64,000 nt of DNA from Ignavibacteriota bacterium (GTDB lineage Bacteria; Bacteroidota; Ignavibacteria; UBA10030; UBA6906). This document shows positions 2,787 through 25,912 of the stretch, piece after piece (within the stretch, counting starts at the first letter, position 1; every line of letters starts with the position of its first letter). The position numbers were made by a program, and so were the translations under genes. The stretch lies in the NCBI GenBank assembly GCA_963801355.1, contig CAWDEM010000008.1, positions 2,272,001 to 2,336,000 on the forward strand, written 5' to 3'. The notes under the pieces are model-generated. The model was given only the letters and a program-made list of their open reading frames with translations, was not told the origin of the DNA and did no database searches.

Positions 2787-2807
2787 TAAAGTCATCAAAT
2801 GACTTTA
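2787..2807. promoter_or_regulatory. Candidate operator for the adjacent FadR/GntR regulator
   Basis: Perfect inverted repeat TAAAGTCAT-caa-ATGACTTTA just downstream of the -10 box. Confidence 0.7.
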
Positions 2808-2827: not shown

Positions 2828-3550
2828 GTGAACACCCGACTGCAACGCACAGGGCTACCCGATCAGTTGGCAGAACGGCTCCAGCGGCTCATCGCGGAGA
2901 GGCACCTGCAGCCGGGTGCCCGCCTCCCTCCGATGAGCGCACTCGCTGTCCGCTTCCGTGTCGGATACCCCACCCTCCGCGAAGGACTCAAGAAACTCGA
3001 AGCACTCGGCGTCATCTCCATCCACCACGGATCCGGGGTGTACGTTCGTCAACCCGTCACCGGCATTTTTCTGGTTAACCCCATTTCCGCAGCAAGCGAG
3101 CCAACCCGAAAGGTCCTTCTGGATCTCATCGAAGCCCGTGGGGCCGTGGAGATGGGCACTATCGGGCTCGCCGCCGAAAGAATAACTCCCGCACAATCAG
3201 CGCAGTTGGAGCGTCTCCTCGAAGAGGCGCTCCGTAACCTCGAGGACCATCAGGAGCTCAACCGCATTAACATGCAGATTCATCTCTGCATCGCAGCGGC
3301 CTCCGGCAATTCCGTGCTGACACACCTCCTGGAGGTAATTCTGAACATGTTCAAAGAGCAGCAGCGCCTGCTGCTCGACATCCGCGGCTTTCCGCGGAGC
3401 GACTATGAACAGCATGTGCGGCTCGTCGATGCCGTACGGCACCGCCATAAAGCATTGGCCCTCACACGCATGCGCAAACATCTCGACGGATTCCGGCAGG
3501 CCGTCCTTGACTTGGACAGCACTCACACCAATTCCACAGAAAGACGCTAA
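2828..3550 (+). CDS. FadR/GntR family transcriptional regulator (wHTH plus FCD)
   Basis: LQPGARLP...TLREGLKKLEALGVI..HHGSGVYV; FCD-like H..IAAASGN..L and HVRLVDAV. Confidence 0.9.
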   Translation: MNTRLQRTGLPDQLAERLQRLIAERHLQPGARLPPMSALAVRFRVGYPTLREGLKKLEALGVISIHHGSGVYVRQPVTGIFLVNPISAASEPTRKVLLDLIEARGAVEMGTIGLAAERITPAQSAQLERLLEEALRNLEDHQELNRINMQIHLCIAAASGNSVLTHLLEVILNMFKEQQRLLLDIRGFPRSDYEQHVRLVDAVRHRHKALALTRMRKHLDGFRQAVLDLDSTHTNSTERR

Positions 3551-3551
3551 C

Positions 3552-6530
3552 ATGGCGACGGACATTCTGCGACGCGCACTGTTGTGCGGCCTCACGGCAG
3601 TCACGTTCTCCGGTGCGGCGTTCAGCCAGTTCGGCAAAGTGACCGGTATCATCACCGACCGCGCAACCCGCGAACCGCTCATCGGAGCAAATGTCACACT
3701 CTCTGGGACCACGGCCGGCGCTTCCACAAATACCCAGGGCGAATACTTCGTTCTCCGCGTTACCCCCGGAGTGTATATATTGCGCGTATCGCTGCTCGGA
3801 TATCACGAAGCCACGGTGAAGAACGTCAAGGTGAGTATCGACCTCTCCACACACATCAACGTCGCCCTCGATGAACAGAGCGTGGAAATCGGAGAAGAGG
3901 TGGTCATCACCGCGGAACGCCCGGTGATCCAGAAAGACGCCACCTCCAGCACGCTGTATGTCGACGCCGCCACGATATCCGCCCTGCCGGTCTCGGATGC
4001 CCGGGAGGGTATCCTCGTCCAGAGCGGCGTGTTCTTCGACCCGATCCCCGTCATGGGAGGCCTGGGCGGATCCGGCAGAGGCGAAACCCGCTATGCTGTC
4101 CGCGGCGGTACCCAGCAGGAGGTGAAGTGGTTCTACGACGGGGTGCGGACCGGCGCCCTCATCGAGGGCCGCGCCGATCGCGGCGGTTCGTACACCGGGG
4201 TCAACTTGAATGCCGTCCAGGAAATCCAAGTGCTCACGGGCGGCTTCAGCGCGGAATATGGTGACGCCCAGTCAGGTATCGTGAATGTCGTCACCAAAGA
4301 AGGGGGAGGCGGATATTCCGGATCGGTGGAATACATCCACGGCTTCGCCGGACAACACCATTTCGGCCCGTATCTGTACGACCAGACCTCTCAGAAAGAG
4401 TTCCTGGACCACCGCGTGCCCGACGGCTCACTGGACCCTGCATGGTGGACTCCATACCGGCAGCGCCAGATATATGACTACACGAACATTTCCGATCATA
4501 CGGTATATCTCAGCTTTGGCGGACCGATCTATCAAACCACCGGTGGCAAGGGAGCATTTTTTCTCTCAGCAGCCCTCAAGCGAGAAGCGTATGTTTTTCC
4601 CCACCCACGGGATACGCGGAACAATGAAAACGTCATGGGAAATTTTTCGTTCCAGCTCCAGCCGGAAATGAAACTCCGTGTCACCGGCCTCTTGGCCCAC
4701 GAAGCACACGCGACACTCCAGGAGAACGGCGACTTCGTCATGCAGGCAAAATATTACCGGGGCTGGGGATCCCTGCTTGACACCTATACCTACAGCGGCT
4801 CCGCCCAACTCACACACACGCTGTCGCCCTCACTCTTCTATGAGGCCAAACTCAGCGGCTTCCTGTTTGACAGCCGGGAGACTCCCAGCGACTATATCGC
4901 ACTCGGAGAGAGCAAGAACCCCGACTTGTTCGGGTTCCAGCGGTACGACGGCTATCAGAGCGAGCCTTTCGATGCGTACTCCTACATTCTCAACAACCAC
5001 CTGCAGAACGGTGATCTCTCCTTCACCGGCAGCGTCAGCTGGCAGGCAGACCAGGCAAATCTTCTCAAAGGGGGAGTGGAGTTTCATTATAACACGCTGG
5101 CGGAAAAGGAAGTCAGCCGGTGGCCTTCCTTTACCACAGAGCGTGCGCTCTGGCTGAACCGCGGTCTCCACGAGACCTATCATCCCCTGCAGCTTTCGGC
5201 GTATCTTCAGGACAAGATGGAATTCGAGAGCATGATCCTCAGCCTGGGAGTACGATACGACTACTTCAATCCGAATCGTGACTGGTTCTGGGGCAACAAC
5301 CTCTACAATCTCAGCATCGATCCCGAGTATTCGGTCGCACAGGACCCCGACCGGGATCAGATCGATTCTCTCGGACATGTGAAGTACGCGTTTGACAATG
5401 TGCTCAAGAAATCCCGGACCCCCTCCCCCACCTATCACATGGTCAGCCCGCGCCTCGGGGTATCCTTCCCCATCACGGAGAATACCGTCCTGCGCTTCAA
5501 CTACGGCCACTTCTACCAGATGCCGCCTCTGGACTGGTTGTATGAGTTCAATTATTTCCGTCCCATTTACATCGTGAAAAGCATTCAGGCGGAATTGGGC
5601 AATCCCAACCCGCGCCACATCCCTTCTGCCGATGGCGACCCGGAACGCGTAGTGCTCCTGACCAATCAACCCCTGCGTCCGATGAAGACGGTGTCTTTCG
5701 AAGCGGGTATCAAACACAACTTCAACGATATCGTTGTGCTGGATGTCGTGGGATTCTACAAAGACGTGACAGACCAGACGTACTCGCGGCAGGGAATCTT
5801 TGACCGTCGCATTTACGGATACGATCCCTTCAGCCGGACCACCACCACGAACACATTCTATTCCAGCTTGCTGTCAGGGGACTACGGTGACGCGCAAGGA
5901 TTCGAAGTGACCCTCCGGTCCCTCTTCAGCAATGTGGTGATGTTTGACCTGAACTACAGCTTTTCACGATCCCTGCAGGGCCGGGCATCGCCGGCGAGAA
6001 TCAATTATGACTCTCTCGGATTGACAACGTTTGTGTATGATACAGACGTTAACAGAAGGATCCCCGTGGAATCTCATTTCAGCCGCCCGCACATTGTTCG
6101 GGCAAACGTGTTGCTACGGTATCCTCAAGATGCGGGGGAGTCTTTCCTGTCAGATATTCTCCGCGATGCCAGCGCCAGCATTCTGTATCGTTTCACCAGC
6201 GGGCAGACGTTCACGTACCTCGGGCCGAACGACCCGCCCGACACATATGACAACCAGAGGTATCCTGTTTCACATACCGTTGACCTCCGCCTCGATAAAT
6301 CACTCCGGTTGGGGGGAAACCACGAGGTGAGTGTTTCGCTCCGTATCACCAACCTGTTGAACACAAAGAACGTGCGCTCCCTCGGTGACATTTTCTATGA
6401 TCCCAACGCGATAAAGAAATTTGTCGACACCGGCGAGGTCACGACAGTTGACGGTGCAGGGTACGACATCTCCTGGCAGACGTGGTACGAAACACGCCGC
6501 TTCTATTTGAGCGCGCGATACGTGTTCTAA
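3552..6530 (+). CDS. TonB-dependent receptor with N-terminal carboxypeptidase-regulatory-like domain (not SusC-type)
   Basis: Signal peptide MATDILRRALL; GKVTGIITDRATREPLIGANV; plug motif VLTGGFSAEYGDAQSGIVNVVTKEG; C-terminal aromatic strand YLSARYVF. Confidence 0.9.
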   Translation: MATDILRRALLCGLTAVTFSGAAFSQFGKVTGIITDRATREPLIGANVTLSGTTAGASTNTQGEYFVLRVTPGVYILRVSLLGYHEATVKNVKVSIDLSTHINVALDEQSVEIGEEVVITAERPVIQKDATSSTLYVDAATISALPVSDAREGILVQSGVFFDPIPVMGGLGGSGRGETRYAVRGGTQQEVKWFYDGVRTGALIEGRADRGGSYTGVNLNAVQEIQVLTGGFSAEYGDAQSGIVNVVTKEGGGGYSGSVEYIHGFAGQHHFGPYLYDQTSQKEFLDHRVPDGSLDPAWWTPYRQRQIYDYTNISDHTVYLSFGGPIYQTTGGKGAFFLSAALKREAYVFPHPRDTRNNENVMGNFSFQLQPEMKLRVTGLLAHEAHATLQENGDFVMQAKYYRGWGSLLDTYTYSGSAQLTHTLSPSLFYEAKLSGFLFDSRETPSDYIALGESKNPDLFGFQRYDGYQSEPFDAYSYILNNHLQNGDLSFTGSVSWQADQANLLKGGVEFHYNTLAEKEVSRWPSFTTERALWLNRGLHETYHPLQLSAYLQDKMEFESMILSLGVRYDYFNPNRDWFWGNNLYNLSIDPEYSVAQDPDRDQIDSLGHVKYAFDNVLKKSRTPSPTYHMVSPRLGVSFPITENTVLRFNYGHFYQMPPLDWLYEFNYFRPIYIVKSIQAELGNPNPRHIPSADGDPERVVLLTNQPLRPMKTVSFEAGIKHNFNDIVVLDVVGFYKDVTDQTYSRQGIFDRRIYGYDPFSRTTTTNTFYSSLLSGDYGDAQGFEVTLRSLFSNVVMFDLNYSFSRSLQGRASPARINYDSLGLTTFVYDTDVNRRIPVESHFSRPHIVRANVLLRYPQDAGESFLSDILRDASASILYRFTSGQTFTYLGPNDPPDTYDNQRYPVSHTVDLRLDKSLRLGGNHEVSVSLRITNLLNTKNVRSLGDIFYDPNAIKKFVDTGEVTTVDGAGYDISWQTWYETRRFYLSARYVF

Positions 6531-6541
6531 CGGAGACCGGC

Positions 6542-8374
6542 ATGACCTCTCGATTGTACATTGTTCTGATCTGCGCGGTAGCCCTCCTGGCCAGGGAAGG
6601 CATGCACGCGCAAACCCGCACCCCCGAGTTCCGTGTTCACGATCGTGGCGAGCTCTGGGAAACCATGAAAGACAACGGCCTGATCGGTGCACCGAATCCG
6701 ACCAACCGGTTTGAATACTATCCCAGCATGGATTGGCCAGGCGGACCGCACATTCTGGTCAGCAAAGACGAACAACGTTCCTATAATTACCAGGCCGGCA
6801 TGTGGATGGGTGGCAAGAAGGCCGGAGGTCAGCTGTTCTTCACTGAAAACGGCCCATTCACATTCGTTGACAACGGCACATTCTCGGCAATCACCAAAAA
6901 AACCAATTTCTTTGGTTCTCCCGGGTTCAACCCGGAGGAAGCGGAGGAAACCATAACCGCCGAATGGACGACAACAGAAGGCATGCGCGTCAAACGCACA
7001 AGCCGCAGCTGGAGCTCTCCCCCGTACAACAACTTTATACTCATCGAGTATCTGGTGACGAATCTGAACTCCTCCGCTGTCTCCGACCTTTTCCTCGGAT
7101 TCCCCTATCTCCTCCGCCCCAGTTACCAGGATTTTGTAGTACACAACGGTTGGGGAGACGATTTGAACCGTGCCGATGATCTCCCTGGGTTTGATTCCAC
7201 TCTCGCCCTGATGTATGTATATGATGACACGCCGAATTTCAGCATCCCGTCGGATGTCGGCAACTATTGGTCGAAAGCCGACGAACTCCGCACCACCGGC
7301 TTCGCCGGAGTGGCATTGATCTTCGCTGACGCTGCGACGGGCGGACGCGCGCAACCGGCCAACATCCTCTCCGCCCAGTTGTTGGGCAACGAACGGAACC
7401 TGACGCTCAGCAGTGTAACGCCGGCGAAGTTGTACGATGTGCTCACAGGAGCGGACCGGTCTCTTCAGGCTGCCTCAGATCTGCGCCTTTGCCCGTTCAT
7501 GCTGATGTCCTGCGGACCCTATACCGTCGCTCCCAACGGCATAGTCAAAATCGTCCTCGCCCAGGCGGTGAATGGCCTGCCTTTGAGTGATGCTGTTCTC
7601 GGGCTTGCGATGCAGCCTTCGCTCCCGGCAGGACTCGACTTATTGAAGGCAAGCATTTCCCGGGCTCGTGATGTGCAGGCTGGCAACAATCGTCTCCCCG
7701 CATTCCCTCCTCCCTCGCCGGACGCCGAGTATATCGCTTTGCCGACATCCCGGTCAATCTCCCTGACCTGGCCGCCGCTTGAGGATGTCTACGCCAATGC
7801 CGTGAGCGGTGCACGCAATTTCCGCGGCTACAAGGTGTATCGTAGTTCCCGGAGCTTCGTGGGCCCGTTCACGCTCATGCGGACGATTAATGCCCGCAAC
7901 CCGACCGACCGCACACGGTTCTATGACGCTGCCCTGGGCAGGTGGCGCGTGCTCGACCAATCCATCGATCTGGGCGTGACATATTTCTATGCCGTCACGT
8001 CGTTTGACAGTCTGGACAACGAAAGTGGCCTGACGAACAGGAATGAACTGGGGATCGCCGCCACAAGTCCCCCCGCCGCGTCCGCTTCCGATGTCCGTGT
8101 CTTTCCGAATCCGTTCCGCGGTGTCTCCGGCTTCCCCACCCGCGGAGAGGAGAGCTCCATTGTATGGACCAACCTCCCCGGTCTCGCGACAATCCGCATC
8201 TTCACCTCGAGCGGCGAGCTGGTGAAAACCATCAAACAGGAAAGCCTTACCTCCGGACAGGTGGTGTGGGATCAGTTATCCGATGCACGCCAGCGCGTAG
8301 CTCCGGGGATTTTCTTCTGGACGGTGGAGTCTCCCGTCGGAAGCTCCCACGGCACTCTGGTGATCATCAAGTGA
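6542..8374 (+). CDS. Secreted protein with FN3-like domain and variant T9SS-like/FlgD-like C-terminal domain
   Basis: Signal peptide; ISLTW..FRGYKVYRS..YFYAVTSFD; C-terminal VFPNPF..IRIFTSSGELVKTI..VVWD..LVIIK. Confidence 0.7.
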   Translation: MTSRLYIVLICAVALLAREGMHAQTRTPEFRVHDRGELWETMKDNGLIGAPNPTNRFEYYPSMDWPGGPHILVSKDEQRSYNYQAGMWMGGKKAGGQLFFTENGPFTFVDNGTFSAITKKTNFFGSPGFNPEEAEETITAEWTTTEGMRVKRTSRSWSSPPYNNFILIEYLVTNLNSSAVSDLFLGFPYLLRPSYQDFVVHNGWGDDLNRADDLPGFDSTLALMYVYDDTPNFSIPSDVGNYWSKADELRTTGFAGVALIFADAATGGRAQPANILSAQLLGNERNLTLSSVTPAKLYDVLTGADRSLQAASDLRLCPFMLMSCGPYTVAPNGIVKIVLAQAVNGLPLSDAVLGLAMQPSLPAGLDLLKASISRARDVQAGNNRLPAFPPPSPDAEYIALPTSRSISLTWPPLEDVYANAVSGARNFRGYKVYRSSRSFVGPFTLMRTINARNPTDRTRFYDAALGRWRVLDQSIDLGVTYFYAVTSFDSLDNESGLTNRNELGIAATSPPAASASDVRVFPNPFRGVSGFPTRGEESSIVWTNLPGLATIRIFTSSGELVKTIKQESLTSGQVVWDQLSDARQRVAPGIFFWTVESPVGSSHGTLVIIK

Positions 8375-8384
8375 GGCATGCGCC

Positions 8385-9326
8385 ATGACTCGAATATTCG
8401 CTCTGCTCTTTCTCACCCTCGTCGGTCCCGCTGCGCTTGCACAGTTCGACTACGGGTTCGAGTTTTCGAAAGCGGGAACCGCCGGTCTTCAGGCGCTCAA
8501 GATACTGCCGGGGGCGCGCGACGCCGCGCTGGCGGGCGCCATGGTCTCTCTCGCCAACGATGCCACAGCGGTATTCATCAATCCCGGGGGGCTGGCATTC
8601 GTGGATCAATCAGAAGCAGTGGTCTCACATGTTTCCTGGCTTGCCGGCAGCCGCACCGACGCAGCGGTCCTCGCAACTCCCTTCGCGGGTTTCGTGTTTG
8701 CCCTGAGCGCTGTCCGGTTCGGCATCGAGGAGTTCGAGGAAACCACCGTCCGTCAGCCGATGGGCACCGGCCGTATGGTGTCAGCCGGCGATCTGGTGAT
8801 CGGACTGGGGGCAGCCCGCCGGTTCTCTGACAAGCTGACAATCGGGCTCCAGCTCAAATACGTGCGGGAATCCCTCGACCATGACGCCGTGAACAACATC
8901 CTCTTTGACGTCGGGTCCATCTACTACACCGGCTTCCATAATCTCCGCCTCGGTTTTGCGGTGCAGCACTTCGGGCCGGACATGAAGATCATCGACCAGA
9001 AATTCCGCTCCCCCCTGCTCTTCCGCGTGGGTGCCGGTGAGGATGTGACATGGGGGGATGACCATCGTCTGACCACTGCAGTCGATCTCGTGCACCCCAC
9101 TGACAACAACGAGTGGGTCAACTGGGGCGTGGAATACGAGATGTTCAGTACCCTCAGCCTGCGCACAGGATACCGGTTTGATGTGGAGCGAGGCAAATGG
9201 AGCTTCGGTGCGGGCGTCCGGCCACCCGAGGTTGCCGGCATCGCCCTCGGTGTCGACTATGCATATTCGCACTTCGATGCAACATTCGGGGCCATTCACC
9301 AGTTCACGGTTGCCATCGCTTTTTGA
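8385..9326 (+). CDS. PorV/PorQ family outer-membrane barrel
   Basis: AGTAGLQALKILPGARDAALAG, ANDATAVFINPGGLA, VDYAY, terminal Phe; signal peptide. Confidence 0.85.
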   Translation: MTRIFALLFLTLVGPAALAQFDYGFEFSKAGTAGLQALKILPGARDAALAGAMVSLANDATAVFINPGGLAFVDQSEAVVSHVSWLAGSRTDAAVLATPFAGFVFALSAVRFGIEEFEETTVRQPMGTGRMVSAGDLVIGLGAARRFSDKLTIGLQLKYVRESLDHDAVNNILFDVGSIYYTGFHNLRLGFAVQHFGPDMKIIDQKFRSPLLFRVGAGEDVTWGDDHRLTTAVDLVHPTDNNEWVNWGVEYEMFSTLSLRTGYRFDVERGKWSFGAGVRPPEVAGIALGVDYAYSHFDATFGAIHQFTVAIAF

Positions 9327-9338
9327 GACAGAGTGGGA

Positions 9339-12173
9339 ATGAAGATGACGAGCAGGACTATGTGGCTGTTGTGCCTTCTCCTGAGCGGGGTCGGCAGTTC
9401 CGCTCACGCGCAGTTCGATCGTCCATGGCAAATCTATCTCGTGCCGTCTTCACACATTGATGTCGGCTATACGGCCCCCGTCGGGCAGGTCCTGCAAGAC
9501 CATCTGCGCTACCTTGACACTGTCGTGGTCTGGACGGAACGAACGAACGGCAATCTTCCCGGTGAGCAGTTTCGCTGGACTATCGAGATTCCATGGGTGG
9601 TGGAGGCGTATCAGCAACATCGCACTGCCGCGCAGGTCGAACGTCTGATGGCGTGCGTGCGACGCGGTGAGGTTGAGATCGGCGGGATGTACTTCGGCCT
9701 GCAAACCGATTTGTGCGGCAACGAGGAACTCGTGCGTTCGCTCATATTTTCCCAGGAGATGCGCAATACGTACAACATTCCCGTCCGCACGGCATTCATC
9801 AACGACACTCCCGGTTTGACCTGGTCGCTCGCACAGCTCATGCCGAAGGCGGGAATACAATATCTGTCGGTGGCAATGAACTCATTCCTGTCCGACTTCT
9901 ACACAACGACGACGCTGCCCAATCTCTTCCATGTGCAGGCGCAGAACGGTGAGAAGCTCTTGGTGTGGCGTTCCATCGACAAGACGTGGGCGTACCTTGA
10001 GGGGAGCGTGACCTGTGCAGTCTATGCACCCGGGCCGGCGATTATGCAAACGAATCTCACCAAGTTTCTCCAGGCATTGGCGGGCAGCGGCTATCCATAC
10101 AACGAAGTGATGATCAACTGCGCCACCGGTGACAACGGCGCCCCTAATTTCACGATTGTCAACAATGCCAAGGATTGGAACGGTACATTCCCCAACGCAC
10201 GAATCCAGATAAGTACCGCGACAGCATTTTTTGATACTATGGTGGCCCGCCATGCCGCACAGATCCCGGTGTACAGCGGCGATGCGCCAAACTGGTGGTC
10301 ATGGCTTTTTGCCCCGTCCGCAACAGGCGGCAACGTGCTCTCCCGGAACGCCCATATGCTCCTTCCCGCTGCCGAAACCTTCGCTACCTTCGCTGCACAG
10401 AAGGATCCCGCGTTCATGATCACGCCGACAACACTGCGCAACGCCTACATCAACAATCTGACGTTTGAAGATCATAACCTCGGGGCGAACTATGCAGGGG
10501 GCAACGAGCCCTTCTGGGTTCTTAAGATGGGCTGGATCAACGCCGCGGTCGATACCGGCACGGCCGTTCTGGACCGGGCCATCGATGCGATTGGGCGAAG
10601 CATTCCCACGGGGACAACACCAGCGATAGCGGTATTCAATCCTCTTGCATGGGAACGTTCGATACCTGTGACGCTCACCGCATCACAGGTGACCTCCCTT
10701 GGGGTATGTGACATCCAAGAAGAATCGACGGGAGCGATGGTGCCCGCGCAGCTATTGCATGACGGTTCACTCTGCTTTATCGCAGCGCACGTCCCCTCGG
10801 TCGGCTATGCGGTCTATCGTATTGTGCCGAAGACAGAACCTTTCCTCCCGCCGCGTCCGCTTGCGGGATACACGGTAGAAAACGCATCATACCGGGTGGA
10901 TGTGGATCCAGCGACGGGCGGAGTGCTCTCCCTGATCGACAAGGGCACCGGCAGAGAGATTGTCTCCGGTGCAGGTCAGTTCAATCAGTACCGCTACAAC
11001 AACACTTTTTCCCCCTCAGGGATGACGATCCGCGCTTCGGATAGCGGATCCGTCTTGCAGTCCATCACGCTTCAAGGATCAGCACAGGGAACGAGCATGT
11101 TCGCCACGACTGTTGCCCTGTATGAAGCCATTAAGCGTCTGGAAATGCGCAGTGTGTACAACAAACTCATTCCGACCTCAACTGAGACGGTGGATTTCCA
11201 TTTCTCCTTTGCCGTGCCATCGCCGCAGATGAGATACGAAATACCGTTCGGCGACGTCAGGCTGTTCGCTGATGAGCTGAGCGGATTCAGCGTGAAACAC
11301 TACGCCTTCGGCCAGTGGCTGGATGTCGTGTCGGGCACGAACGATTTTGCCGCCGTGCTCGCCGTAAAGAACGCCTCAGTGACAGCTCATCCAAGCGGGA
11401 CATTTGAGGGCAACGTGCGCATCATGGTCTCCTACAACGATGCAGCATCAGCGTACCGCGCCGGTGTGGGACAGGTGCCCATGGACTTTTCGTTGACGAC
11501 CGCGTCAGGTTATTTCGCGGACTCCTCTATGCGCCATGCATATTCGTTCAGTGCGCCGGCACCGGTCCGGATCTTGCCTGCCGGCCAAAAGGGGACGCTG
11601 GGCGGCGGACGTCACTCTTTCCTGAGCGTCACGCCGGCGTGTCTCCTGCTCTCGACGGTAAAACCACCCGTGAGCGGAACCGGCTGCATCGTGCGTCTCT
11701 TCAATCCGCTTGATCACGCGGTCCCCGCAGTCTTGAAGTTCTCCGCTGCGGTACTGTCCGCGCGTGAGACGTCTCTGTTGGAAGTCGACGGTGCCACACT
11801 GGTATTCCGGCACGACTCTGTGTTTGCAGTATGGAACCCGTATGAAGTAAAAACCCTGCGCGTGCAACTTGCAGAGCCGACGTCCGCAGGACAATTCGAG
11901 GATGTCCCAGGCACATTCGATCTCGAACAGAATTATCCAAATCCTTTTAACCCGAGTACGACCATACGATTCTCAATTGTGGATCCACAATTCACCATTG
12001 TGAAGGTGTACGATCTGCTGGGGCGGGAGGTGGCGGTGCTCGTGAATGAACAGGTACCACCAGGACAACATGCTGTTGCATTCGATGCATCGCGACTTGC
12101 CAGCGGCACCTACGTGTGCCGGCTCCAGTCGGGAACGCACATCTCCACCATCAAAATGATGCTCGTCCGGTGA
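9339..12173 (+). CDS. GH38-like glycoside hydrolase with T9SS type A CTD
   Basis: SHIDVGYT, FRWTIE, INDTPG; C-terminal WNPYEVKTLRV then LEQNYPNPFNPSTTIRF..KMMLVR; start could be 9333, 9339 or 9345. Confidence 0.8.
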   Translation: MKMTSRTMWLLCLLLSGVGSSAHAQFDRPWQIYLVPSSHIDVGYTAPVGQVLQDHLRYLDTVVVWTERTNGNLPGEQFRWTIEIPWVVEAYQQHRTAAQVERLMACVRRGEVEIGGMYFGLQTDLCGNEELVRSLIFSQEMRNTYNIPVRTAFINDTPGLTWSLAQLMPKAGIQYLSVAMNSFLSDFYTTTTLPNLFHVQAQNGEKLLVWRSIDKTWAYLEGSVTCAVYAPGPAIMQTNLTKFLQALAGSGYPYNEVMINCATGDNGAPNFTIVNNAKDWNGTFPNARIQISTATAFFDTMVARHAAQIPVYSGDAPNWWSWLFAPSATGGNVLSRNAHMLLPAAETFATFAAQKDPAFMITPTTLRNAYINNLTFEDHNLGANYAGGNEPFWVLKMGWINAAVDTGTAVLDRAIDAIGRSIPTGTTPAIAVFNPLAWERSIPVTLTASQVTSLGVCDIQEESTGAMVPAQLLHDGSLCFIAAHVPSVGYAVYRIVPKTEPFLPPRPLAGYTVENASYRVDVDPATGGVLSLIDKGTGREIVSGAGQFNQYRYNNTFSPSGMTIRASDSGSVLQSITLQGSAQGTSMFATTVALYEAIKRLEMRSVYNKLIPTSTETVDFHFSFAVPSPQMRYEIPFGDVRLFADELSGFSVKHYAFGQWLDVVSGTNDFAAVLAVKNASVTAHPSGTFEGNVRIMVSYNDAASAYRAGVGQVPMDFSLTTASGYFADSSMRHAYSFSAPAPVRILPAGQKGTLGGGRHSFLSVTPACLLLSTVKPPVSGTGCIVRLFNPLDHAVPAVLKFSAAVLSARETSLLEVDGATLVFRHDSVFAVWNPYEVKTLRVQLAEPTSAGQFEDVPGTFDLEQNYPNPFNPSTTIRFSIVDPQFTIVKVYDLLGREVAVLVNEQVPPGQHAVAFDASRLASGTYVCRLQSGTHISTIKMMLVR

Positions 12174-12181
12174 GAACAACT

Positions 12182-13501
12182 ATGACACGGATCGCCGTCG
12201 GTCTCTCTGCCGCGGCGTTCATACTGCTCCTCGTCTGGGATGCGGGAGGAGAACGGCAACGGGACGACGGGCGACTGCACATCCGGTATTGGACTATCAT
12301 CGGGATGAAGGAAATCATTCCGTACTTCGCACGGTCCTTCGGCGATACCCAGGATCGCATTGTCGTTGATACAACCCCTATTCCCTGGCAGGAACATGAG
12401 AAGAAGATACTGACCTCGATCGTGAGCGGCAATCCACCCGACGTTGTCAACCAGATGACTCCGGTTGCCAAGTGGGCGTCGCGGCTGGCGCTGGTGCCGC
12501 TGGATGAGTATATTCGCCGGGATCATTTCGACACCACTATGTTTTTTAAGTCTCTCTGGGAGGAGATGCGCTATCGCGGTCGGATCTACGGCATCCCGGT
12601 CTACTCCGGATCGTATGCCCTCTTTTATAACAGAACGCTCTTCCGTGAGGCGGGCCTCGATCCCGACAAACCCCCGCACACATGGGAGGACGTTTTCGCA
12701 TTGAACAAGCGGTTCGTCAGGAGGGACGCCCGCGGGCATCTGCTCAGGATGGGGTTCATCCCCAACTACGGCAACGTCCAGACCTTCATGTTAATGGCCT
12801 GGCAGCAAGGAGCCTCTTTCGTGAGCCCCGACGGTACGCGGATTCAGGTCGCCGATTCTTCGGTGGTACATGCACTGCAGTGGGTGCAGCGGTTTTACGC
12901 TGAGTATGACCAGCGGGATATCGCAGCGTTCCTCGGCGGACTCGGGTTTGCAGATCAACACGGCTTCATCGCGGGAAAGGTCGCGATGATGATCCTTGAC
13001 AGCAGTTTTCCCGATCAGATTCGCGCTTACAAACCGGGGCTGGACTACGGTGTGGCCATGATCCCGACGTTTCCCGGAGATCCCACGGCGTCCGTTTCCG
13101 GCAGCTGGTGGCTGGGAATTCCTCGGGGGGCAAAACACCCCGAGGAAGCCTGGCAGTTCATCAAACACGCCGTCACCAAAGAATCCCAGCTGCTGGAAAT
13201 TGAAAAGACTGAGGAAAGTCTGTTCCCTGCAAACCGTCTCGCCGCGGAGGATCCCCGGTTCATGAACACGCCGGCCCGGGAGGTGTTCGTGCGTATGATG
13301 GAGTTCTCGCATTCGCCATCAATCGTCCCCCTTGCCCACGATATGTTCTGGCGCGAGATCTCTGGCGCACAGGAACGGGTTATCCACAATCTGCAATCCC
13401 CCGACGAGGCCCTGCGCCAGGCGGAACGGCAGATCCAGGCCATCCTCGACGATGCACGGGATTACGACCTGTATGTGCATACTCATGCGGGAGGAGAGTA
13501 A
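12182..13501 (+). CDS. Sugar ABC transporter substrate-binding protein (CUT1)
   Basis: IVSGNPPDV, YRGRIYGIP, LFYNRTLFREAGLDPDKPPHTWED; N-terminal hydrophobic segment. Confidence 0.9.
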   Translation: MTRIAVGLSAAAFILLLVWDAGGERQRDDGRLHIRYWTIIGMKEIIPYFARSFGDTQDRIVVDTTPIPWQEHEKKILTSIVSGNPPDVVNQMTPVAKWASRLALVPLDEYIRRDHFDTTMFFKSLWEEMRYRGRIYGIPVYSGSYALFYNRTLFREAGLDPDKPPHTWEDVFALNKRFVRRDARGHLLRMGFIPNYGNVQTFMLMAWQQGASFVSPDGTRIQVADSSVVHALQWVQRFYAEYDQRDIAAFLGGLGFADQHGFIAGKVAMMILDSSFPDQIRAYKPGLDYGVAMIPTFPGDPTASVSGSWWLGIPRGAKHPEEAWQFIKHAVTKESQLLEIEKTEESLFPANRLAAEDPRFMNTPAREVFVRMMEFSHSPSIVPLAHDMFWREISGAQERVIHNLQSPDEALRQAERQIQAILDDARDYDLYVHTHAGGE

Positions 13502-14425
13502 ATGAAAGGGATCGACACAACCTGGATGCGCACGCCGCGCCGCAGGCAGGAAGCCTTCCTGGGTATCCTCTTTGCATCGCCGTGGCTTGTCGGATTCCTG
13601 GTGTTCGGCCTCTATCCGATGATTATGTCGCTGTACTTCAGCCTCTGCCGGTATGATGTGCTGCGCATCCCTCAGTTCATCGGACTTGGCAACTATCACA
13701 CACTCCTTGCACGCGATCCGTATTTTTGGACGGCGGTAGAGAACACCCTCTCTTATGCCCTCGTGCGCACACCGCTTTGCGTCGCCGGTTCGCTGTTCCT
13801 CGCCGTGCTGATCAATCGTGCCACGCGCGGTGCGCGGCTCTACCGGACGGTCTTCTTCCTCCCATCCATCGTCTCCGGCGTGGTTGTTTCTGTTCTCTGG
13901 CTCTGGCTCCTGAATCCCCAGTACGGGCTCATCAACTCGGCTCTCCAGTTGGTCGGCATCAACGGGCCGCTCTGGTTGCAGAGCCCCGAGTGGTCCAAGC
14001 CATCCCTTGTCCTTATGAGCCTCTGGTCGATCGGCGGCGGCCGGATGATCGTGTTCCTCGCCGCCCTCCAGACTGTGCCGCAGCATCTGTATGAGGTTGT
14101 CGACCTGGATGGGGGAGGTGCATGGCAGAAGTTCCGGCACGTCACCTTGCCCATGATTTCACCGGTGCTGTTTTTGTGGATTGTACTGGAAGTCATCTTT
14201 TCGTTTCAGGTGTTCACAGAATCCTATGTCATGACCAAAGGCGGACCGCTCAACTCCACGCTGTTCTATAATCTGTATCTGTACTACAAGGCGTTTGATG
14301 ATTTCGACATGGGATACGCCTCCGCACTTGCATGGCTCCTGCTCCTGTTCTCAGTGGTCGTCACTGTGGTGCAGTTCAAAGTCGGAAAACGGTGGGTGTA
14401 CTACGAAGCCGGCCGGGGGTCTTGA
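13502..14425 (+). CDS. Carbohydrate ABC transporter permease (MalF/UgpA-like)
   Basis: ALQTVPQHLYEVVDLDGGGAWQKFRHVTLP (EAA-loop variant), MGYASALAW. Confidence 0.93.
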   Translation: MKGIDTTWMRTPRRRQEAFLGILFASPWLVGFLVFGLYPMIMSLYFSLCRYDVLRIPQFIGLGNYHTLLARDPYFWTAVENTLSYALVRTPLCVAGSLFLAVLINRATRGARLYRTVFFLPSIVSGVVVSVLWLWLLNPQYGLINSALQLVGINGPLWLQSPEWSKPSLVLMSLWSIGGGRMIVFLAALQTVPQHLYEVVDLDGGGAWQKFRHVTLPMISPVLFLWIVLEVIFSFQVFTESYVMTKGGPLNSTLFYNLYLYYKAFDDFDMGYASALAWLLLLFSVVVTVVQFKVGKRWVYYEAGRGS

Positions 14426-14428
14426 GCG

Positions 14429-15265
14429 ATGACGCATCGACACAAAGGATGGAAACAGCTGGGGCTGTACACCGTACTGACGGCGTTCGGCGCCTTGTTC
14501 CTGATTCCCTTTCTGTGGGTGCTTTCGACTTCGCTCAAGGGCAATGAGCAAATCTTTACCATTCCCCCGCAGTGGATTCCGTTGCGGCTCCACTGGGAGA
14601 ACTACACGGAAATTTTCCGGCGCATGCCGGTGCTCCTGTATCTGAAGAACTCTGTGATTGTAACGGTGTTGCAGATGGTCGGCATCGTGGGTTCGAGCTC
14701 TCTGGTCGCGTATGCCTTCGCCATCCTCCGGTGGCCGGGCCGGAATCTCCTGTTTGGCGTCCTTCTTGCGACAATGATGCTTCCGATGCAGGTGACAATG
14801 ATCCCGGTGTTCGTGCTCTTCAAGCAACTCGGTTGGCTGGACACATTCAAGCCACTGGTCGTGCCGGCGTTCCTGGGCGGGGGCGCATTCAACATCTTCT
14901 TGCTGCGCCAGTTCTTCCTGGGCATTCCAGGAGAAATTGCCGACGCTGCCCGCATCGACGGATGCTCGGAATTCCGCATCTACTGGAACATCATGCTGCC
15001 CCTGGCCTCGCCCGCACTGGCAACGGTCGCCATCATGACCTTCATGTTCTCATGGAACGATTTCCTCGGACCGCTCATCTATCTGTCCGAAAAGGACAAG
15101 AGCACGTTGGCACTGGGTTTATCAATGTTCGTCGGACAGCAAACAAGTGAGTGGGCACTGCTGATGGCAGCTTCCATATTGATGATGCTTCCGATGGTGG
15201 CAGTCTTTTTCTTCTTCCAGAAATATATCATCCAGGGCTTCACTATGAGCGGACTCAAAGGATGA
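14429..15265 (+). CDS. Carbohydrate ABC transporter permease (MalG/UgpE-like)
   Basis: LLRQFF..IPGEIADAARIDGCS, WNDFLGPLIYL, FQKYIIQGFTMSGLKG. Confidence 0.93.
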   Translation: MTHRHKGWKQLGLYTVLTAFGALFLIPFLWVLSTSLKGNEQIFTIPPQWIPLRLHWENYTEIFRRMPVLLYLKNSVIVTVLQMVGIVGSSSLVAYAFAILRWPGRNLLFGVLLATMMLPMQVTMIPVFVLFKQLGWLDTFKPLVVPAFLGGGAFNIFLLRQFFLGIPGEIADAARIDGCSEFRIYWNIMLPLASPALATVAIMTFMFSWNDFLGPLIYLSEKDKSTLALGLSMFVGQQTSEWALLMAASILMMLPMVAVFFFFQKYIIQGFTMSGLKG

Positions 15266-18200
15266 ATCGGTACGCAAGGGTTCTCGTGGCCGTCATGGCC
15301 GTCGGGGTCGTCAGCACCGGATATGCGACCGCCCAGCAGACAATGCGGCTGTCGTTGCGGAATGATGGCTCTGTTCCTGCCTGGCTGGTGGCAGGACCAT
15401 TTGAACAGGGAATCGAAGGGTTCGGCCAATGGCGGTCTGTCGATGCGATCGGCGAAGATTCCGTCAGGCCCCGGACAGGAGGTTTCCTCTCCGCACCTCT
15501 GGTGCAGGGCGGCTCCACAACCTGGGCAGTCCAGTCAGTGGACGCACGCGGCTATCTCGATCTGAATAGTTCGGTGGGGTGGTCGATACCCGGCCGGACG
15601 CCCGAGCAGGTCTGGTGGACGAAAGCGGCATATGCGTATGTCAAAATGGAATCCGCGTCGGCGCGGAAATTGCATCTGTTGGTCGGCACGAACTCACAGC
15701 TCGTGGTCTTCATCAATGGTACGACGGTCCATCAGTTTTCCGGTCAACGGGATGCCGTTCCCGATGACGATACGGTGGACCTCCCCATCGCTGCCGGTGT
15801 CAATCATCTGCTCATGAAGATCGGCAATACCCACAAGAATCACCGGTCACCGTTCTTCGGCGGGATCAGCTTCGGGTGGGGAAGCTATTGCCGACTGCTG
15901 ACGCGCGACGGACAGGTTCCTCAGGATATCACCATCACATTCGACGATGTGCCTTCAGGCCCGCTGATGCAGCTCCACTCCACCTTCTTCTTCCGCAAGA
16001 GTGGCAATGCCCTCCAACAACGGCATGACCTTGAGATCTTTTCTCCCGGCGAGGATTCCACCGCCGGAAGCCTTGTCATGGTGGCGAACGGGCAGACCGT
16101 CCGGCATGCGCTTCCCTCCCTGCAGTGGGGGTGGAACCGTGTTCCATTGTGGCACGCGGCCCAAACAGCCAACACGCCTGCAAGCTTCCGTCTGGAAATC
16201 GGCACCAAGGGCATCACTCATTCTGACACCCTTCGCGCGGAACAGCGGTACGAACTCCAGCTGGTGTTCCTGACCCACACCGACATCGGCTACACACATC
16301 CCCAGCCGGTGGTGAAGGAGTTGCACTGTGCCGCACTTGATGAAGTGCTGGCCCTCTGCAGGAAACATCCCGATTTTCGCTGGACGATTGAAACGGTCTG
16401 GCAGCTCGAGCAATATCAACAATCGCGTTCGAAAGCAGCCATACAGGAATTGTACCGCTACATGCGCGAGGGACGTATAGCCCTATCCCCTGTCTCCACC
16501 AATCCATACACCGGCTGGGTGAGTGAGGAGGAGATGATCCGGGCAATGTATCCCGGCCGCGATGTTCAGCAGCTCCTGGGGATCTCGACGCCCGGTGCCG
16601 TGTACAATGACGTGCCGGGTCTTGCATGGATGATGCCTCGTATTCTCTCGGACGCCGGTGTCCGGCTCATCCTGTGTGGACTGAACGAGGTCTACGGCGG
16701 ATATGCACTGCAGCGCGCACTTCCGAAGGCCTTCCTTTGGGAAGGCGGCGATGGCACGCGTCTCGCAGTGTACAGGAATGAGACCTACACGGAAGGGACC
16801 GACTATGGACTGGAGCACGACCCGCCCGTAATTGCCCACCGCATGTGGGAGCGCCTCCTCCGCCTCCGGGCCTCGAGGGAAGACCGTCGGATGGTCCTGC
16901 TCAACTCCGCCTGGTTTGACAACGGTCCGCCCGCCGCCCACCAGTTCGAAGCGGCAAGGAAGTGGAACGCCGAGTATGCCTATCCGCGATTTGTCGTCAC
17001 GACACTGGCGGACGCAGCGAAGGCTTTCATCCGTGACTATGCACATGCTCTTCCGGTGTTGAGGGGAGATTGGACATCGTCATGGGACATGCTCTACCAG
17101 GGAGAACCTGAACGCGTGGCAAGGGAGCGGGCAACACAGCAAAGCCTCATTGCGGCCGAGGCCCTCGATGCCCTCACCACGGTCATCCGACCAGAGGTGG
17201 TGCCGGCCACAAAGGCCGCAGACAACGCCTATGCAGCACTGTTGGAGTACAGCGGCCATGGCAGCGGCTTGGAGGCCGGGTTTGGCACCCCTGGTGAGAA
17301 TGCCCTGACGATGCAGATGCGCGAGCAGTACCTCCGAAATGCCGGCAGCATTACGGCGGAGCTGTACTACCGTGCGCTCACTCGGATCATCCGGGCTGAA
17401 GAAGCGTTCGACGCCGAAGGGATCATCGCGGTGAACCCACTGTCGTGGCAATGCACCGTGCCAGTTGAAATCGAGCTTAAAGACTCCTCAGATCATCAGC
17501 TCGAGCTGACCGACCCTCTGACGGGTCGAATGGTCCCCAGCTTCCGGATGGGCCATCGGCTTTCCTTCGTGGCACCAGATCTTCCTCCGATGGGATTCCG
17601 CAAATTCTTTACCTCATCTGGAAAGCAGGGAACCCCCGCCCCGGATAGCCAGGATCTGAGACTCACTGGTTCATACATCGAAAACAGGGCTTATCGTATC
17701 ACCTTTGATCCACACGGAGGACTGGTCACATCGATTGTTGACAAGCGCAGCGGCATCGAGCTGCTCTCCTCCCGTGGCATGCCGTTCAACGAACCCATGG
17801 TCCAGACGGGTGTTGCGGGACGCGGATATAGACCGGCGAGCGGAGAAAACGGTCAGTGTACCGTTACCGACGAACGCCCGGTCCGACTCGTCCTCTCGAT
17901 TCTGCGTCCCGGTAGAGTTATCGAAAAAACGGAGTATATATTATGGACCGGTGTCGATCGGGTTGACCTCCTCCACACCGTGAACCTGGAGCAACTCCGG
18001 CCCCCAAAGGAGGTCGAAGTGTACGCTGCGGCGTTTCCGTTCGCGTTCGCAGGCTCATCTGTCGCGTTCATGGACCTTCTGGGGGGAGTTGCACGAGTCC
18101 CAGACCAACGTCTCCCGGGAGCACTGAACGATATCTACTCCATCAGGCGGTCTGCCGCGGTGACAGATGGCCGCACGTGCATCGCACTTGCCGCAGTTGA

Positions 18201-18717: not shown

Positions 18718-18838
18718 CATTCAAGAACACACGACAATCCCGAGAGAGGAGGGCTTGAGTAAGCCATTGCGAACTGGTATGTGACGACCATGGTTCGGTT
18801 TTTCCCCATTCCATCCACTCAACACAAGGAGGCTGTCC

Positions 18839-19681: not shown

Positions 19682-19698
19682 CCTGTACCGTTGAACTC

Positions 19699-19743: not shown

Positions 19744-19775
19744 TACGAACAACCACTCTTCTCCAAAGGCGACGC

Positions 19776-25910: not shown

Positions 25911-25912
25911 CG

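Follow-up and report, generated by a model that had tools for sequence, protein, structure and literature searches.

The locus examined here lies in a 64,000-nucleotide stretch of DNA from an Ignavibacteriota bacterium (contig CAWDEM010000008.1, positions 2,272,001 to 2,336,000), referred to below as the window. Three genes, all on the + strand, form its core: a TonB-dependent receptor (TBDR, 3552–6530), a signal-peptide protein of 610 aa, here called MID (6542–8374), and an outer-membrane barrel of the PorV/PorQ family (8385–9326). An earlier interpretation made from the letters of this DNA alone (the sequence-only reading) had described these genes as tightly spaced, and their boundaries were found to be identical, with spacers of 11 nt (TBDR–MID) and 10 nt (MID–barrel). 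It had also placed the triad at the head of a glycan operon, which stands with the qualification that, strictly, a gene for a GntR/FCD-family regulator comes before it, its stop codon 1 nt from the TBDR start. The features of the locus are as follows.

2787..2807, no strand: perfect 9+9 inverted repeat, TAAAGTCAT-N3-ATGACTTTA, 21 nt upstream of the GntR start
2828..3550, + strand: GntR/FCD-family transcriptional regulator (Pfam GntR and FCD domains)
3552..6530, + strand: TBDR, 992 aa, with signal peptide, carboxypeptidase-regulatory-like N-terminal domain, plug and barrel (Pfam/NCBIfam)
6542..8374, + strand: MID (parts given below)
8385..9326, + strand: locus-specific PorV/PorQ-family (FadL-like) outer-membrane barrel, 313 aa (NF033709)
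9333..12173, + strand: GH38 alpha-mannosidase-family protein with a canonical type A C-terminal domain (CTD), a T9SS cargo (domain and CTD profile matches)
12116..15265, + strand: parts of a sugar ABC importer (SBP_bac_1, BPD_transp_1), including permease 1 (13502–14425, BPD_transp_1) and permease 2 (14429–15265, BPD_transp_1)
15151..26830, + strand: rest of the mannoside locus, six ORFs (domain profile matches), listed next
15151–18717, + strand: GH38
18839–19681, + strand: DUF4961 protein with a type A CTD
19710–21833, + strand: unassigned ORF of 707 aa
21830–24733, + strand: GH38
24672–25910, + strand: esterase
25913–26830, + strand: ROK sugar kinase

The regulator also gave sub-threshold NCBIfam matches of the NanR/LldR-like kind. 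The core of the inverted repeat, AGTCATNNNATGACT, was found once in the window (mean of 0.12 in shuffled sequences, at least one match in 12 of 100 shuffles), and it is also present just upstream of the GntR homologue in four of 81 loci (L001, L002, L026 and L058). The repeat is a candidate operator of the locus regulator. Downstream of the triad, the gene for the CTD-bearing GH38 begins 6 nt after the barrel, and the true start of the solute-binding protein is probably later than 12116 because its ORF overlaps the GH38 end. The locus is not a canonical PUL with adjacent susC and susD, as no SusD-family match was found in the 46 window proteins (four examined at E ≤ 0.01 and 42 at E ≤ 1e-5).

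Conservation of the triad

Gene order was compared in the best 80 of 98 relatives found in genome contigs. The TBDR gene abuts MID in all 77 related loci with more than 300 nt of upstream sequence, and the barrel gene abuts MID in all 78 with more than 300 nt downstream. The three genes are thus conserved together, far beyond chance, in loci that span several FCB phyla (Ignavibacteria, Melioribacter, Rhodothermales, Balneolaceae, Calditrichia, KSB1, Neomarinimicrobiota and Zhuqueibacterota). The triad is rigid while the neighbouring genes rearrange: of the 80 loci, 29 have the ABC binding-protein gene upstream, 29 have it downstream and 22 lack it (at >300 bits), and only 20 have a GH38 as the next gene after the barrel. 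The approximately 1.4 Mb of related loci plus the window yielded no second triad.

Pairwise distances among the three triad proteins were correlated at 0.86–0.90, against 0.80–0.81 with the binding protein of the locus, and the partial correlations given the binding protein were 0.60–0.72 (51 loci including the window); these values use non-independent pairs and carry no p-value. Block co-transfer of the triad genes would yield the same pattern.

The receptor and the middle protein

The TBDR carries the Pfam domains CarbopepD_reg_2, Plug and TonB_dep_Rec_b-barrel, and belongs to the general TonB-dependent receptors (PF07715, 38.3 bits; PF00593, 75.5 bits; both above cut-off). In line with the sequence-only reading, which had noted the lack of a SusC plug signature, it was rejected as a SusC/RagA protein, since TIGR04056 gave 65.6 bits (cut-off 368.25) over residues 29–268 only, and none of the solved SusC structures matched it at E ≤ 0.001.

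MID was divided into five parts, all on the + strand.

6542..6613, + strand: signal peptide, aa 1–24 (helix 2–21 in the model; putative cleavage site)
6614..7591, + strand: head, aa 25–350 (AF2 models, Foldseek, alignment)
7592..7696, + strand: long helix, aa 351–385 (helix 354–380 in AF2; 330–356 of the N-domain model)
7697..8041, + strand: FN3-like beta-sandwich, aa 386–500 (strands 396–489; Foldseek matches to FN3 tandems)
8042..8374, + strand: divergent type A CTD, aa 501–610 plus stop (motifs VFPNPF, WTNLPG, IRIFT and C-terminal LVIIK)

A Pfam scan of MID returned no family at E ≤ 0.01, hence no SusD family, and no Pfam, NCBIfam or PDB sequence match was found. The AF2 model is beta-rich, with helices only at 2–21 (the signal peptide), 294–302, 348–351, 354–380 and 454–460, and SusD/RagB, with its alpha-helical TPR-like fold, was rejected on this ground as well as for want of a SusD Pfam match. 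The alignment consensus shows no conserved N-terminal cysteine that would mark a lipoprotein, and the type of signal peptidase is presumed; Q24, the putative first mature residue, is invariant in the orthologue alignment and forms an A–Q junction. The earlier claim that no SusD-like lipoprotein follows the TBDR therefore holds, and by sequence and fold MID is neither a SusD homologue nor a known enzyme.

The first approximately 58 residues of the head (the N-segment) are near-invariant among orthologues yet modelled at a pLDDT below 50, and are followed by a beta-super-sandwich in the structure models. Foldseek matched the head to the non-catalytic N-terminal beta-sandwich of GH94, GH116, GH161 and GH65 enzymes (TMq approximately 0.4, E approximately 2e-7, 7–16% identity). 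These fold matches are modest, and are to accessory domains of enzymes and not to classical CBMs; no recognised carbohydrate-binding family was found in the head. In the model the long helix is a possible stalk. The FN3-like domain noted in the sequence-only reading is backed by the AF2 model and the Foldseek matches, with no Pfam fn3 match.

MID orthologues are 53–84% identical and share many invariant polar residues. This level of conservation is unusually high for a binding protein and would also fit an enzyme. MID could thus be a barrel-anchored surface enzyme, such as a new endo-acting glycanase that cuts the substrate before import, instead of a binding or lid protein. Besides the high identity, the invariant polar residues (among them H33, R35, D44, D64, E102, E135, D197, H201, D212, D228 and E248) point this way, as do the nearest folds, which come from glycoside hydrolases and phosphorylases. 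However, the matched parts are the non-catalytic sandwiches, nothing in MID corresponds to the catalytic (alpha/alpha)6 domain, MID has no match in Pfam, NCBIfam or PDB sequences, and in every locus it retains its susD-like position right behind the TBDR. We consider such an enzyme quite unlikely.

The barrel and its predicted docking to the CTD

The barrel belongs to the PorV/PorQ family (NF033709, 171.5 bits, cut-off 90), and its sole solved relative is PorV (6h3i_F, E 8e-9). It was rejected as the PorQ equivalog (NF033711, 59.9 bits, below 220), the PorV equivalog (NF033710, 52.3 bits, below 250) and a PorP/SprF protein (TIGR03519, 16.9 bits, below 90.55). Matches to Pfam PorV (23.8, below 27) and to FadL/Toluene_X were sub-threshold. 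The window also contains a separate porQ, which serves as a comparator outside the module.

51350..52300, + strand: true PorQ of the general T9SS (NF033711, 253.6 bits, cut-off 220)

Both this gene and the family assignment of the barrel agree with the sequence-only reading. A profile of triad barrels scored this PorQ at 82 bits and the 78 full-length triad barrels, that of the window included, above 200 bits.

The CTD of MID scored 17.3 bits against TIGR04183 (cut-off 23, E 0.0035), with no match to PF18962 at E ≤ 10 and nothing against the type B models TIGR04131 and PF13585 at E ≤ 10. Its top matches were the C-terminal regions of PorZ (32.4 bits, E 3.4e-8) and PorU (23.1 bits), whose CTDs are described in passages of a review (PMC10202324) as retained, bound to PorQ and PorV respectively. 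The CTDs of the GH38 at 9333–12173 (43 bits) and of the DUF4961 protein at 18839–19681 (38.9 bits) pass TIGR04183. The suggestion that the MID CTD is unlike these two was borne out by the scores; it is treated here as a divergent type A CTD below the TIGR04183 cut-off, and not as a wholly different type. NCBI names some MID orthologues and paralogues T9SS type A sorting domain proteins. The ordinary type A cargo of the same locus is without a barrel of its own.

A complex of the barrel (residues 20–313) with MID residues 385–610 was modelled with an ipSAE of 0.93 in each of three runs, against 0.02 for the best of three controls; the ipSAE mark applied is reached by 116 of 157 solved complexes and by two of 215 mismatched pairs. 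The runs had at least 98% of contacts in common, with a pLDDT of at least 84 for the partner. Contacts of MID with the barrel were confined to CTD residues 519–610, and the FN3-like domain was outside the predicted interface. This amounts to a high-confidence prediction that the CTD of MID docks on the neighbouring barrel. Because PorV–CTD complexes have already been solved (reported in part of PMC10994853), the score may reflect likeness to these complexes and not binding by this particular pair. The predicted interface on the barrel is enriched in invariant columns (14/53 against 28/241; odds ratio 2.7, p 0.007), and within the CTD alone the enrichment was not significant (15/44 against 11/52, p 0.12).

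A barrel that docks the CTD might be an export accessory only, as SprF is for SprB, needed to bring MID through the T9SS, after which MID would be released or linked to A-LPS and act independently of the TBDR. PorV shuttles cargo transiently, and in the solved complexes the CTD is contacted by PorV loops and SprA together (in the portion of PMC10994853 drawn on here); the complex model is blind to the difference between transient and permanent binding, and some members of the MID family bear the ordinary type A sorting domain name. Against this, a general PorQ is present elsewhere in the window, the ordinary type A cargo of the locus manages without a dedicated barrel, the generic model gives the MID CTD a lower score than do the retained CTDs of PorZ and PorU, and the TBDR is linked to MID as strictly as the barrel is (77/77). 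A role in export only is unlikely, though it carries some weight, and the barrel probably holds MID on the cell surface.

Distant triads and a proposed role in uptake

When MID was searched with phmmer against 1.84 billion representatives, 2566 matches were found at E ≤ 1e-3, 358 at ≤ 1e-10 and 22 at ≤ 1e-30. Among the matches listed, an iterated MID profile aligned from position 60 or earlier to about 609 in 91 of 98 representatives of at least 550 aa. No Pfam family was found in 61 of the 64 members scanned, and conservation across 92 distant paralogues was highest in the CTD (0.47) and lowest in the N-segment (0.26). Judged from these comparisons, MID is a member of a large superfamily almost wholly without Pfam families, in which the CTD is constant and the head variable.

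The sequence-only reading had mentioned similar triads in related FCB lineages, and one was identified by sequence on plasmid pRMAR01 of Rhodothermus marinus DSM 4252, where a TBDR is followed by a 1132-aa member of the MID superfamily (252 bits to the MID profile, E 2.8e-78) and a PorV/PorQ-family barrel (215.9 bits). This barrel shares 30.5% identity with that of the window and scores 135 bits against it, compared with 87 bits for the PorQ of the window. The pRMAR01 triad is non-orthologous to, and independent of, that in the window. Genes for an Amidase_2 protein and a beta-lactamase-like hydrolase come next; the triad adjoins peptidoglycan-type enzymes there, and the module is therefore not glycan-specific. 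A further instance, by product names only, is the R. marinus alginate locus, for which the Fig. 2 legend of PMC9530828 gives the order TonB-dependent receptor, T9SS type A sorting domain protein (2,181 nt) and PorV/PorQ family protein (1,056 nt), with no remark on this order. According to papers on M. roseus and R. marinus, triad-bearing genomes also encode SusC/SusD pairs at other sites. The earlier description of the system as SusD-less, or as replacing SusD, was thus overstated as a lineage trait, and the triad is a parallel architecture rather than one that a lack of SusD made necessary.

These distant loci also bear on whether the barrel serves another T9SS cargo of the locus, the CTD-bearing GH38 next to it, or is a FadL-type channel, with its adjacency to MID incidental. 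The GH38 begins only 6 nt after the barrel in the window, and the barrel has the sub-threshold FadL/Toluene_X matches given above. However, a GH38 is directly after the barrel in 20 of the 80 loci while MID precedes it in 78 of 78, the pRMAR01 barrel is again found after a MID-family gene with no GH38 there, and the CTD–barrel model is strong relative to its controls, making this explanation highly improbable.

The triad resembles SusC/SusD (RagA/RagB) in having a TBDR with an N-terminal carboxypeptidase-regulatory-like domain followed directly by the gene for a partner that is, or in the case of MID is predicted to be, surface-exposed, in sharing its locus with glycoside hydrolases, a regulatory gene and a sugar importer of the inner membrane, and in the large partner family with a variable, putatively ligand-facing part. 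It differs in that the TBDR falls short of the SusC/RagA model, in the beta-rich MID with neither a SusD Pfam match nor a conserved lipobox cysteine, in the predicted route of MID to, and retention at, the surface by the T9SS and a barrel instead of lipidation, and in inner-membrane uptake by an ABC system. The attachment-complex pairs of the T9SS, PorZ–PorQ and PorU–PorV, likewise consist of a PorV/PorQ-family barrel and a partner whose type A-like CTD presumably stays on as the anchor. Unlike them, the triad barrel is neither the PorQ nor the PorV equivalog, in a window that has its own PorQ; the MID–barrel pair lies in a substrate-utilisation operon beside a TBDR and not with T9SS machinery, and MID has no PorZ or PorU body, only the C-terminal 85–95 residues or so being matched.

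Type B cargo and PorP/SprF barrels (SprB–SprF, PG1035–PorP) are encoded by adjacent genes, and the barrel is proposed to anchor the cargo, its CTD uncleaved, at the cell surface (from the parts of PMC10202324 used here). The same adjacency of cargo and barrel genes is conserved in the 78 loci and on pRMAR01, but neither the MID CTD nor the barrel matches the type B or PorP/SprF models and no TBDR belongs to those pairs. BamG–BamH belongs to the BAM complex of Bacteroidota, where the surface loops of a FadL-like barrel hold on to an extracellular protein beside another large barrel (as outlined in part of PMC12578637); this is an analogy only, from the unrelated process of outer-membrane protein assembly and with no T9SS CTD.

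No functional study of the triad was found in the literature. On balance, we lean towards reading it as a three-part outer-membrane uptake module at the head of an alpha-mannoside utilisation locus. The TBDR would be the TonB-energised import channel. MID would be exported by Sec and then by the T9SS via its divergent type A CTD, which would remain uncleaved and docked on the dedicated barrel encoded 10 nt downstream, an arrangement like that of PorZ on PorQ, PorU on PorV and type B cargo on PorP/SprF. Tethered in this way on a stalk of FN3-like domain and helix, MID would place its lineage-specific beta-super-sandwich head beside or over the TBDR, where it would capture a substrate, putatively an alpha-mannoside, and pass it to the receptor. 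It would then fill the role that SusD and other surface lipoproteins have for SusC, by a different route of export and anchoring. The T9SS-secreted GH38 would trim the substrate extracellularly and the other GH38s, the sugar ABC importer and the ROK kinase would complete the pathway, with the GntR/FCD regulator in control. The triad combines two known principles, and it appears to offer an as yet unstudied alternative to nutrient capture by a SusC/SusD pair.

Layout of the locus and its putative operator

The triad examined here consists of genes for a TonB-dependent receptor (TBDR), a signal-peptide protein with a T9SS C-terminal sorting domain (CTD), here called MID, and a PorV/PorQ-family barrel. 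The interval 3552–9326, assigned to the triad when the sequence was read without database searches, coincides exactly with the gene boundaries. The genes in and around the triad are as follows.

Features of the locus
2828–3550, + strand: GntR/FCD regulator gene, with its stop 1 nt 5′ of the TBDR start
3552–6530, + strand: TBDR gene, 992 aa
6542–8374, + strand: MID gene, 610 aa, 11 nt 3′ of the TBDR gene
8385–9326, + strand: barrel gene, 313 aa, 10 nt 3′ of the MID gene
9333–12173, + strand: GH38 with a type A CTD, downstream of the barrel gene
12116–15265: sugar ABC importer (binding protein and two permeases), downstream of the GH38
18839–19681: small DUF4961 protein with a canonical type A CTD
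19710–21833: long ORF inside the mannoside locus, 707 aa
26796–28688: long ORF inside the mannoside locus, 630 aa
Downstream part of the locus: two additional GH38s, an esterase and a ROK kinase

Because of the genes found downstream of the triad (the GH38s, ABC importer and ROK kinase, amongst others), the locus reads as an alpha-mannoside utilisation operon. No ATPase gene was seen beside the binding protein and permeases of the importer (12116–15265). The last 58 nt of the GH38 also belong to the binding-protein ORF, whose true start therefore probably lies farther 3′. As it carries a canonical type A CTD, the DUF4961 protein is probably secreted by the T9SS as an accessory of the mannoside locus. 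The two long ORFs matched no Pfam or NCBIfam family (E≤1e-5); both are candidate glycan-active proteins outside known classes.

A perfect inverted repeat, TAAAGTCAT-N3-ATGACTTTA, was found at 2787–2807, 21 nt 5′ of the GntR/FCD gene. The core of this repeat also lies just upstream of the GntR homologue in four related triad loci, namely L001 (6492–6506), L002 (6403–6417), L026 (6098–6112) and L058 (6055–6069), which comprise two close relatives and two Calditrichia loci. The repeat is likely to be the operator of the locus regulator. In a promoter and terminator scan of 2500–13000 the counts were not above those for shuffled sequence, and Rfam gave no matches over the whole window. Beyond the sugar locus, a DUF4185 protein (29666–30850) follows the lgt gene, and a GWxTD-domain protein (43852–45207) is found farther downstream amid housekeeping genes. 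The segment 36466–38349 contains no ORF of 200 aa or more; shorter ORFs are present and, from their translations read by eye, look like peptidyl-tRNA hydrolase and ribosomal proteins S6, S18 and L9.

The MID protein and its superfamily

MID matched no Pfam family at E≤0.01, and a profile of 33 MID orthologues found no relatives among PDB sequences at E≤1. The AF2 model of the entire protein (pLDDT 75.2, pTM 0.71; for residues 25–385, pLDDT 77.4 and pTM 0.83) has a signal peptide, a beta-rich head (approximately 25–350), a long helix (354–380), an FN3-like sandwich (396–489) and a C-terminal sandwich (519–608). When the head was searched against the ESM Atlas, only clusters of 'hypothetical protein' were recovered. 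In Foldseek the head came closest to a beta-sandwich that forms the non-catalytic N-terminal part of enzymes from GH94, GH116, GH161 and GH65 (TMq ~0.4, E ~2e-7, 7–16% identity), and a counterpart of their catalytic domain is absent from MID. A SusD homologue was ruled out by the lack of a Pfam family and the beta-rich model. Together, the Pfam and PDB searches and the AF2 and Foldseek results indicate that MID is neither a SusD homologue nor a known enzyme, in keeping with the sequence-only reading. A rival explanation, that MID is a barrel-anchored enzyme, has to be set against the same comparison: the nearest folds belong to enzymes, and it is their non-catalytic domain that the head resembles.

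The CTD of MID scored 17.3 bits against TIGR04183 (cut-off 23), and the profiles it matched best were those for the C-termini of PorZ (32.4 bits, E 3.4e-8) and PorU (23.1 bits). There was no match to the type B CTD models, which ruled out a type B assignment, and by these profiles the domain is best treated as a divergent type A CTD. The other two CTDs in the locus are above the cut-off, at 43 and 38.9 bits. The contrast drawn earlier between the MID CTD and these two holds for the lower score and, on this treatment, not for the type.

A phmmer search with MID against 1.84 billion representatives recovered 2566 at E≤1e-3, 358 at E≤1e-10 and 22 at E≤1e-30. Among the 150 representatives listed, 98 have a length of at least 550 aa. 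In the alignment to the iterated profile, 91 of the 98 start at position 60 or earlier and run to approximately 609, and 95 start at 150 or earlier. No Pfam family (E≤1e-4) was found in 61 of the 64 members scanned, drawn from the 150 listed. The exceptions were a sub-threshold CHU_C match, a member with added Ig-like domains, and an FG-GAP and M28 protein that has only the FN3-CTD part in common with MID. The names of the clusters of 10 distant members were only 'hypothetical' or 'T9SS type A / C-terminal target domain', and the superfamily appears uncharacterised. Searching with a profile built from 47 divergent members mainly recovered the orthologues already found and did not broaden the taxonomic picture.

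Over 92 distant members, conservation (mean top-residue share) was highest in the CTD (0.47), followed by the FN3 domain (0.39), and lowest in the first ~58 mature residues (0.26). Among orthologues, the same N-terminal segment has 24 invariant columns, yet it was modelled with a pLDDT below 50. Since the CTD is the most and the N-terminal segment the least conserved part in distant members, while that segment is near-invariant among orthologues, we read the superfamily as a constant anchor with a lineage-specific head. Folding of part of the MID head may require a partner or ligand.

The receptor, the barrel and the modelled complex

The TBDR contains CarbopepD_reg_2, Plug and barrel domains (Pfam). 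Against the SusC/RagA model TIGR04056 it scored 65.6 bits, far below the cut-off of 368.25, with the match confined to the N-terminal 240 residues, and assignment to the SusC class was ruled out on this score. None of the solved SusC structures matched it at E≤0.001. The barrel scored 171.5 bits against the PorV/PorQ family model NF033709 (cut-off 90) and was below the cut-offs for PorQ (59.9, cut-off 220), PorV (52.3, cut-off 250) and PorP/SprF (16.9, cut-off 90.55). It was ruled out as the PorQ or PorV of the organism on these scores and by the presence of a separate, true PorQ (253.6 bits) encoded at 51350–52300.

A complex of barrel residues 20–313 and MID residues 385–610, each with an alignment of 33 sequences, was modelled with a score of 0.93 in each of three runs, and the best of three controls scored 0.02. 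The score mark, which this pair passed, was met by 116 of 157 solved complexes and by 2 of 215 mismatched pairs. At least 98% of the contacts were common to the runs, and the partner pLDDT was at least 84. Only CTD residues 519–610 contact the barrel in the model, and the FN3 domain makes no contact. The model supports binding of the MID CTD to the adjacent barrel; as structures of type A CTDs on PorV loops within the SprA translocon have already been solved (PMC10994853), the pass may mirror the likeness to PorV-CTD pairs. The predicted interface on the barrel is enriched in invariant columns (14/53 versus 28/241; odds ratio 2.7, p 0.007). For the CTD alone, the enrichment of the interface over the rest was not significant (15/44 versus 11/52; p 0.12). 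Two less probable rival explanations concern the barrel: it may be an export accessory only, or it may serve other cargo or act as a channel.

There are precedents for a barrel that holds its cargo. Through retained CTDs, PorZ is bound to PorQ and PorU to PorV, and a PorP/SprF barrel adjacent to its cargo is known for type B CTDs (both from PMC10202324). BamG holding BamH is a looser analogy to a barrel-held MID (PMC12578637).

Conservation of the triad and a possible capture architecture

Among 8000 scored candidates, 293 full-length close relatives of MID were found at E≤0.001. A scan of genome contigs gave 98 relatives; the loci analysed below are the best 80 of them. An orthologue of the TBDR adjoins MID in all 77 loci with more than 300 nt upstream, and a barrel orthologue adjoins it in all 78 with more than 300 nt downstream, so the three genes are conserved together, as the proposal of a triad had implied. 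The surrounding genes vary in position. The ABC binding-protein gene lies upstream in 29 of the 80 loci and downstream in another 29, and the other 22 gave no match to it above 300 bits; a GH38 (>150 bits) is present in 52 of the 80 but directly 3′ of the barrel gene in only 20. Because adjacency to the TBDR and barrel genes is constant while the positions of the ABC and GH38 genes vary, the triad is a rigid block within a rearranging locus.

The record titles of the loci name Ignavibacteria, Melioribacter, Rhodothermales, Rubricoccaceae, Balneolaceae, Calditrichia, KSB1, Neomarinimicrobiota and Zhuqueibacterota, as well as the generic or possibly mis-binned labels Syntrophomonadaceae, Bacteroidales, Chitinophagales and Cytophagia. 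In two MAG contigs triad genes are broken into overlapping ORFs, the TBDR and barrel in L001 (6793–9968 and 11823–12765) and all three genes in L009 (6938–9971, 9992–11810 and 11822–12779); these could be assembly frameshift errors or gene decay. When all ORFs of the 80 loci and the window were scanned with the iterated MID profile and the barrel profile, no second triad was found, and the extra matches were only CTD-level matches to other T9SS cargo and the window PorQ. Across 51 loci including the window, pairwise distances of the triad proteins correlated with one another at r 0.86–0.90 and with those of the locus binding protein at 0.80–0.81; given the binding protein, the partial r among them was 0.60–0.72 for these non-independent pairs. 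This co-variation is weak support, as the same pattern would arise if the genes were transferred as one block.

A tblastn search of a plasmid collection with MID matched one record, pRMAR01 of Rhodothermus marinus DSM 4252, via the CTD. The gene order there is FG-GAP protein, TonB-dependent receptor, 1132-aa hypothetical protein, PorV/PorQ family protein, Amidase_2 protein and serine hydrolase. The 1132-aa protein matched the iterated MID profile with 252 bits (E 2.8e-78) over three segments, among them head, FN3 and CTD, and on this match is a member of the MID superfamily. The pRMAR01 barrel shares 30.5% identity with the window barrel (135 bits, versus 87 bits to the window PorQ) and scored 215.9 bits against NF033709, failing the PorQ and PorV equivalogs. 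The pRMAR01 triad is an independent, non-orthologous one in a non-mannoside context. The FG-GAP protein 5′ of it (401–3133 in the pRMAR01 locus, L081) has a CTD-like end, and 3′ of it (10354–12880) are the Amidase_2 protein, of the peptidoglycan-recognition type, and the hydrolase, which has a class A beta-lactamase fold. This context hints at uptake of a peptidoglycan-type substrate. A plasmid search with the barrel also recovered an unannotated Phocaeicola massiliensis record (24% identity).

Two published R. marinus loci, judged by product names, appear to share the triad order. In the alginate locus (receptor, hypA, hypB) this order draws no further comment in the passages covered (PMC9530828). 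The xylan locus contains a TonB-dependent receptor (Rmar_1070), a hypothetical protein with a Por sorting domain (Rmar_1071) and a hypothetical protein (Rmar_1072), with a SusC/SusD pair alongside at Rmar_1077–1078 (PMC6987092). A SusCDE operon is also reported from the M. roseus genome (PMC3534657). On these two reports the triad coexists with SusC/SusD, and the idea that it replaces SusD in a SusD-less lineage is overstated.

In the mechanism we consider most likely, MID would be exported by Sec and then the T9SS, and its CTD would stay docked on the private PorV/PorQ-type barrel, with the helix and FN3 domain forming a stalk. The head and the TBDR together would capture substrate for import, and the secreted GH38, further GH38s, ABC importer and ROK kinase would complete the pathway under GntR control. 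More broadly, and tentatively, as we put it at somewhat less than an even chance, the MID superfamily and its private barrels may form a second architecture for capture at the outer membrane, widespread in the FCB group, in which T9SS-delivered surface partners of TBDRs are tethered non-covalently to a barrel by a CTD anchor that stays constant, and the head, which varies, sets specificity. The substrates would be mannosides in the window locus, peptidoglycan-type material on pRMAR01 and, elsewhere in R. marinus, alginate and probably xylan, and the architecture would coexist with SusC/SusD.

TBDR uptake loci and T9SS cargo on PorV-like barrels are known kinds of system; their combination appears uncharacterised. 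No paper interpreting or testing the triad was found in CC-licensed PMC and bioRxiv texts. The main text of a 2026 review of bacterial glycoside transporters (PMC13543919) does not mention T9SS, PorV or Rhodothermus, and the Caldithrix genome paper does not mention SusC or SusD. The idea is directly testable in cultured R. marinus, which appears to have the same gene order in its published alginate locus. If it is true, thousands of 'hypothetical' proteins would gain a function and the MID superfamily (2566 representatives at E≤1e-3, with no Pfam family in 61 of the 64 scanned) a role. Prediction of polysaccharide utilisation loci outside Bacteroidia would improve, as SusD-based rules miss such loci. 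The T9SS would then build permanent nutrient-uptake complexes, beyond secreted or A-LPS-linked cargo, and would become linked to polysaccharide utilisation loci, with which it is not usually studied.
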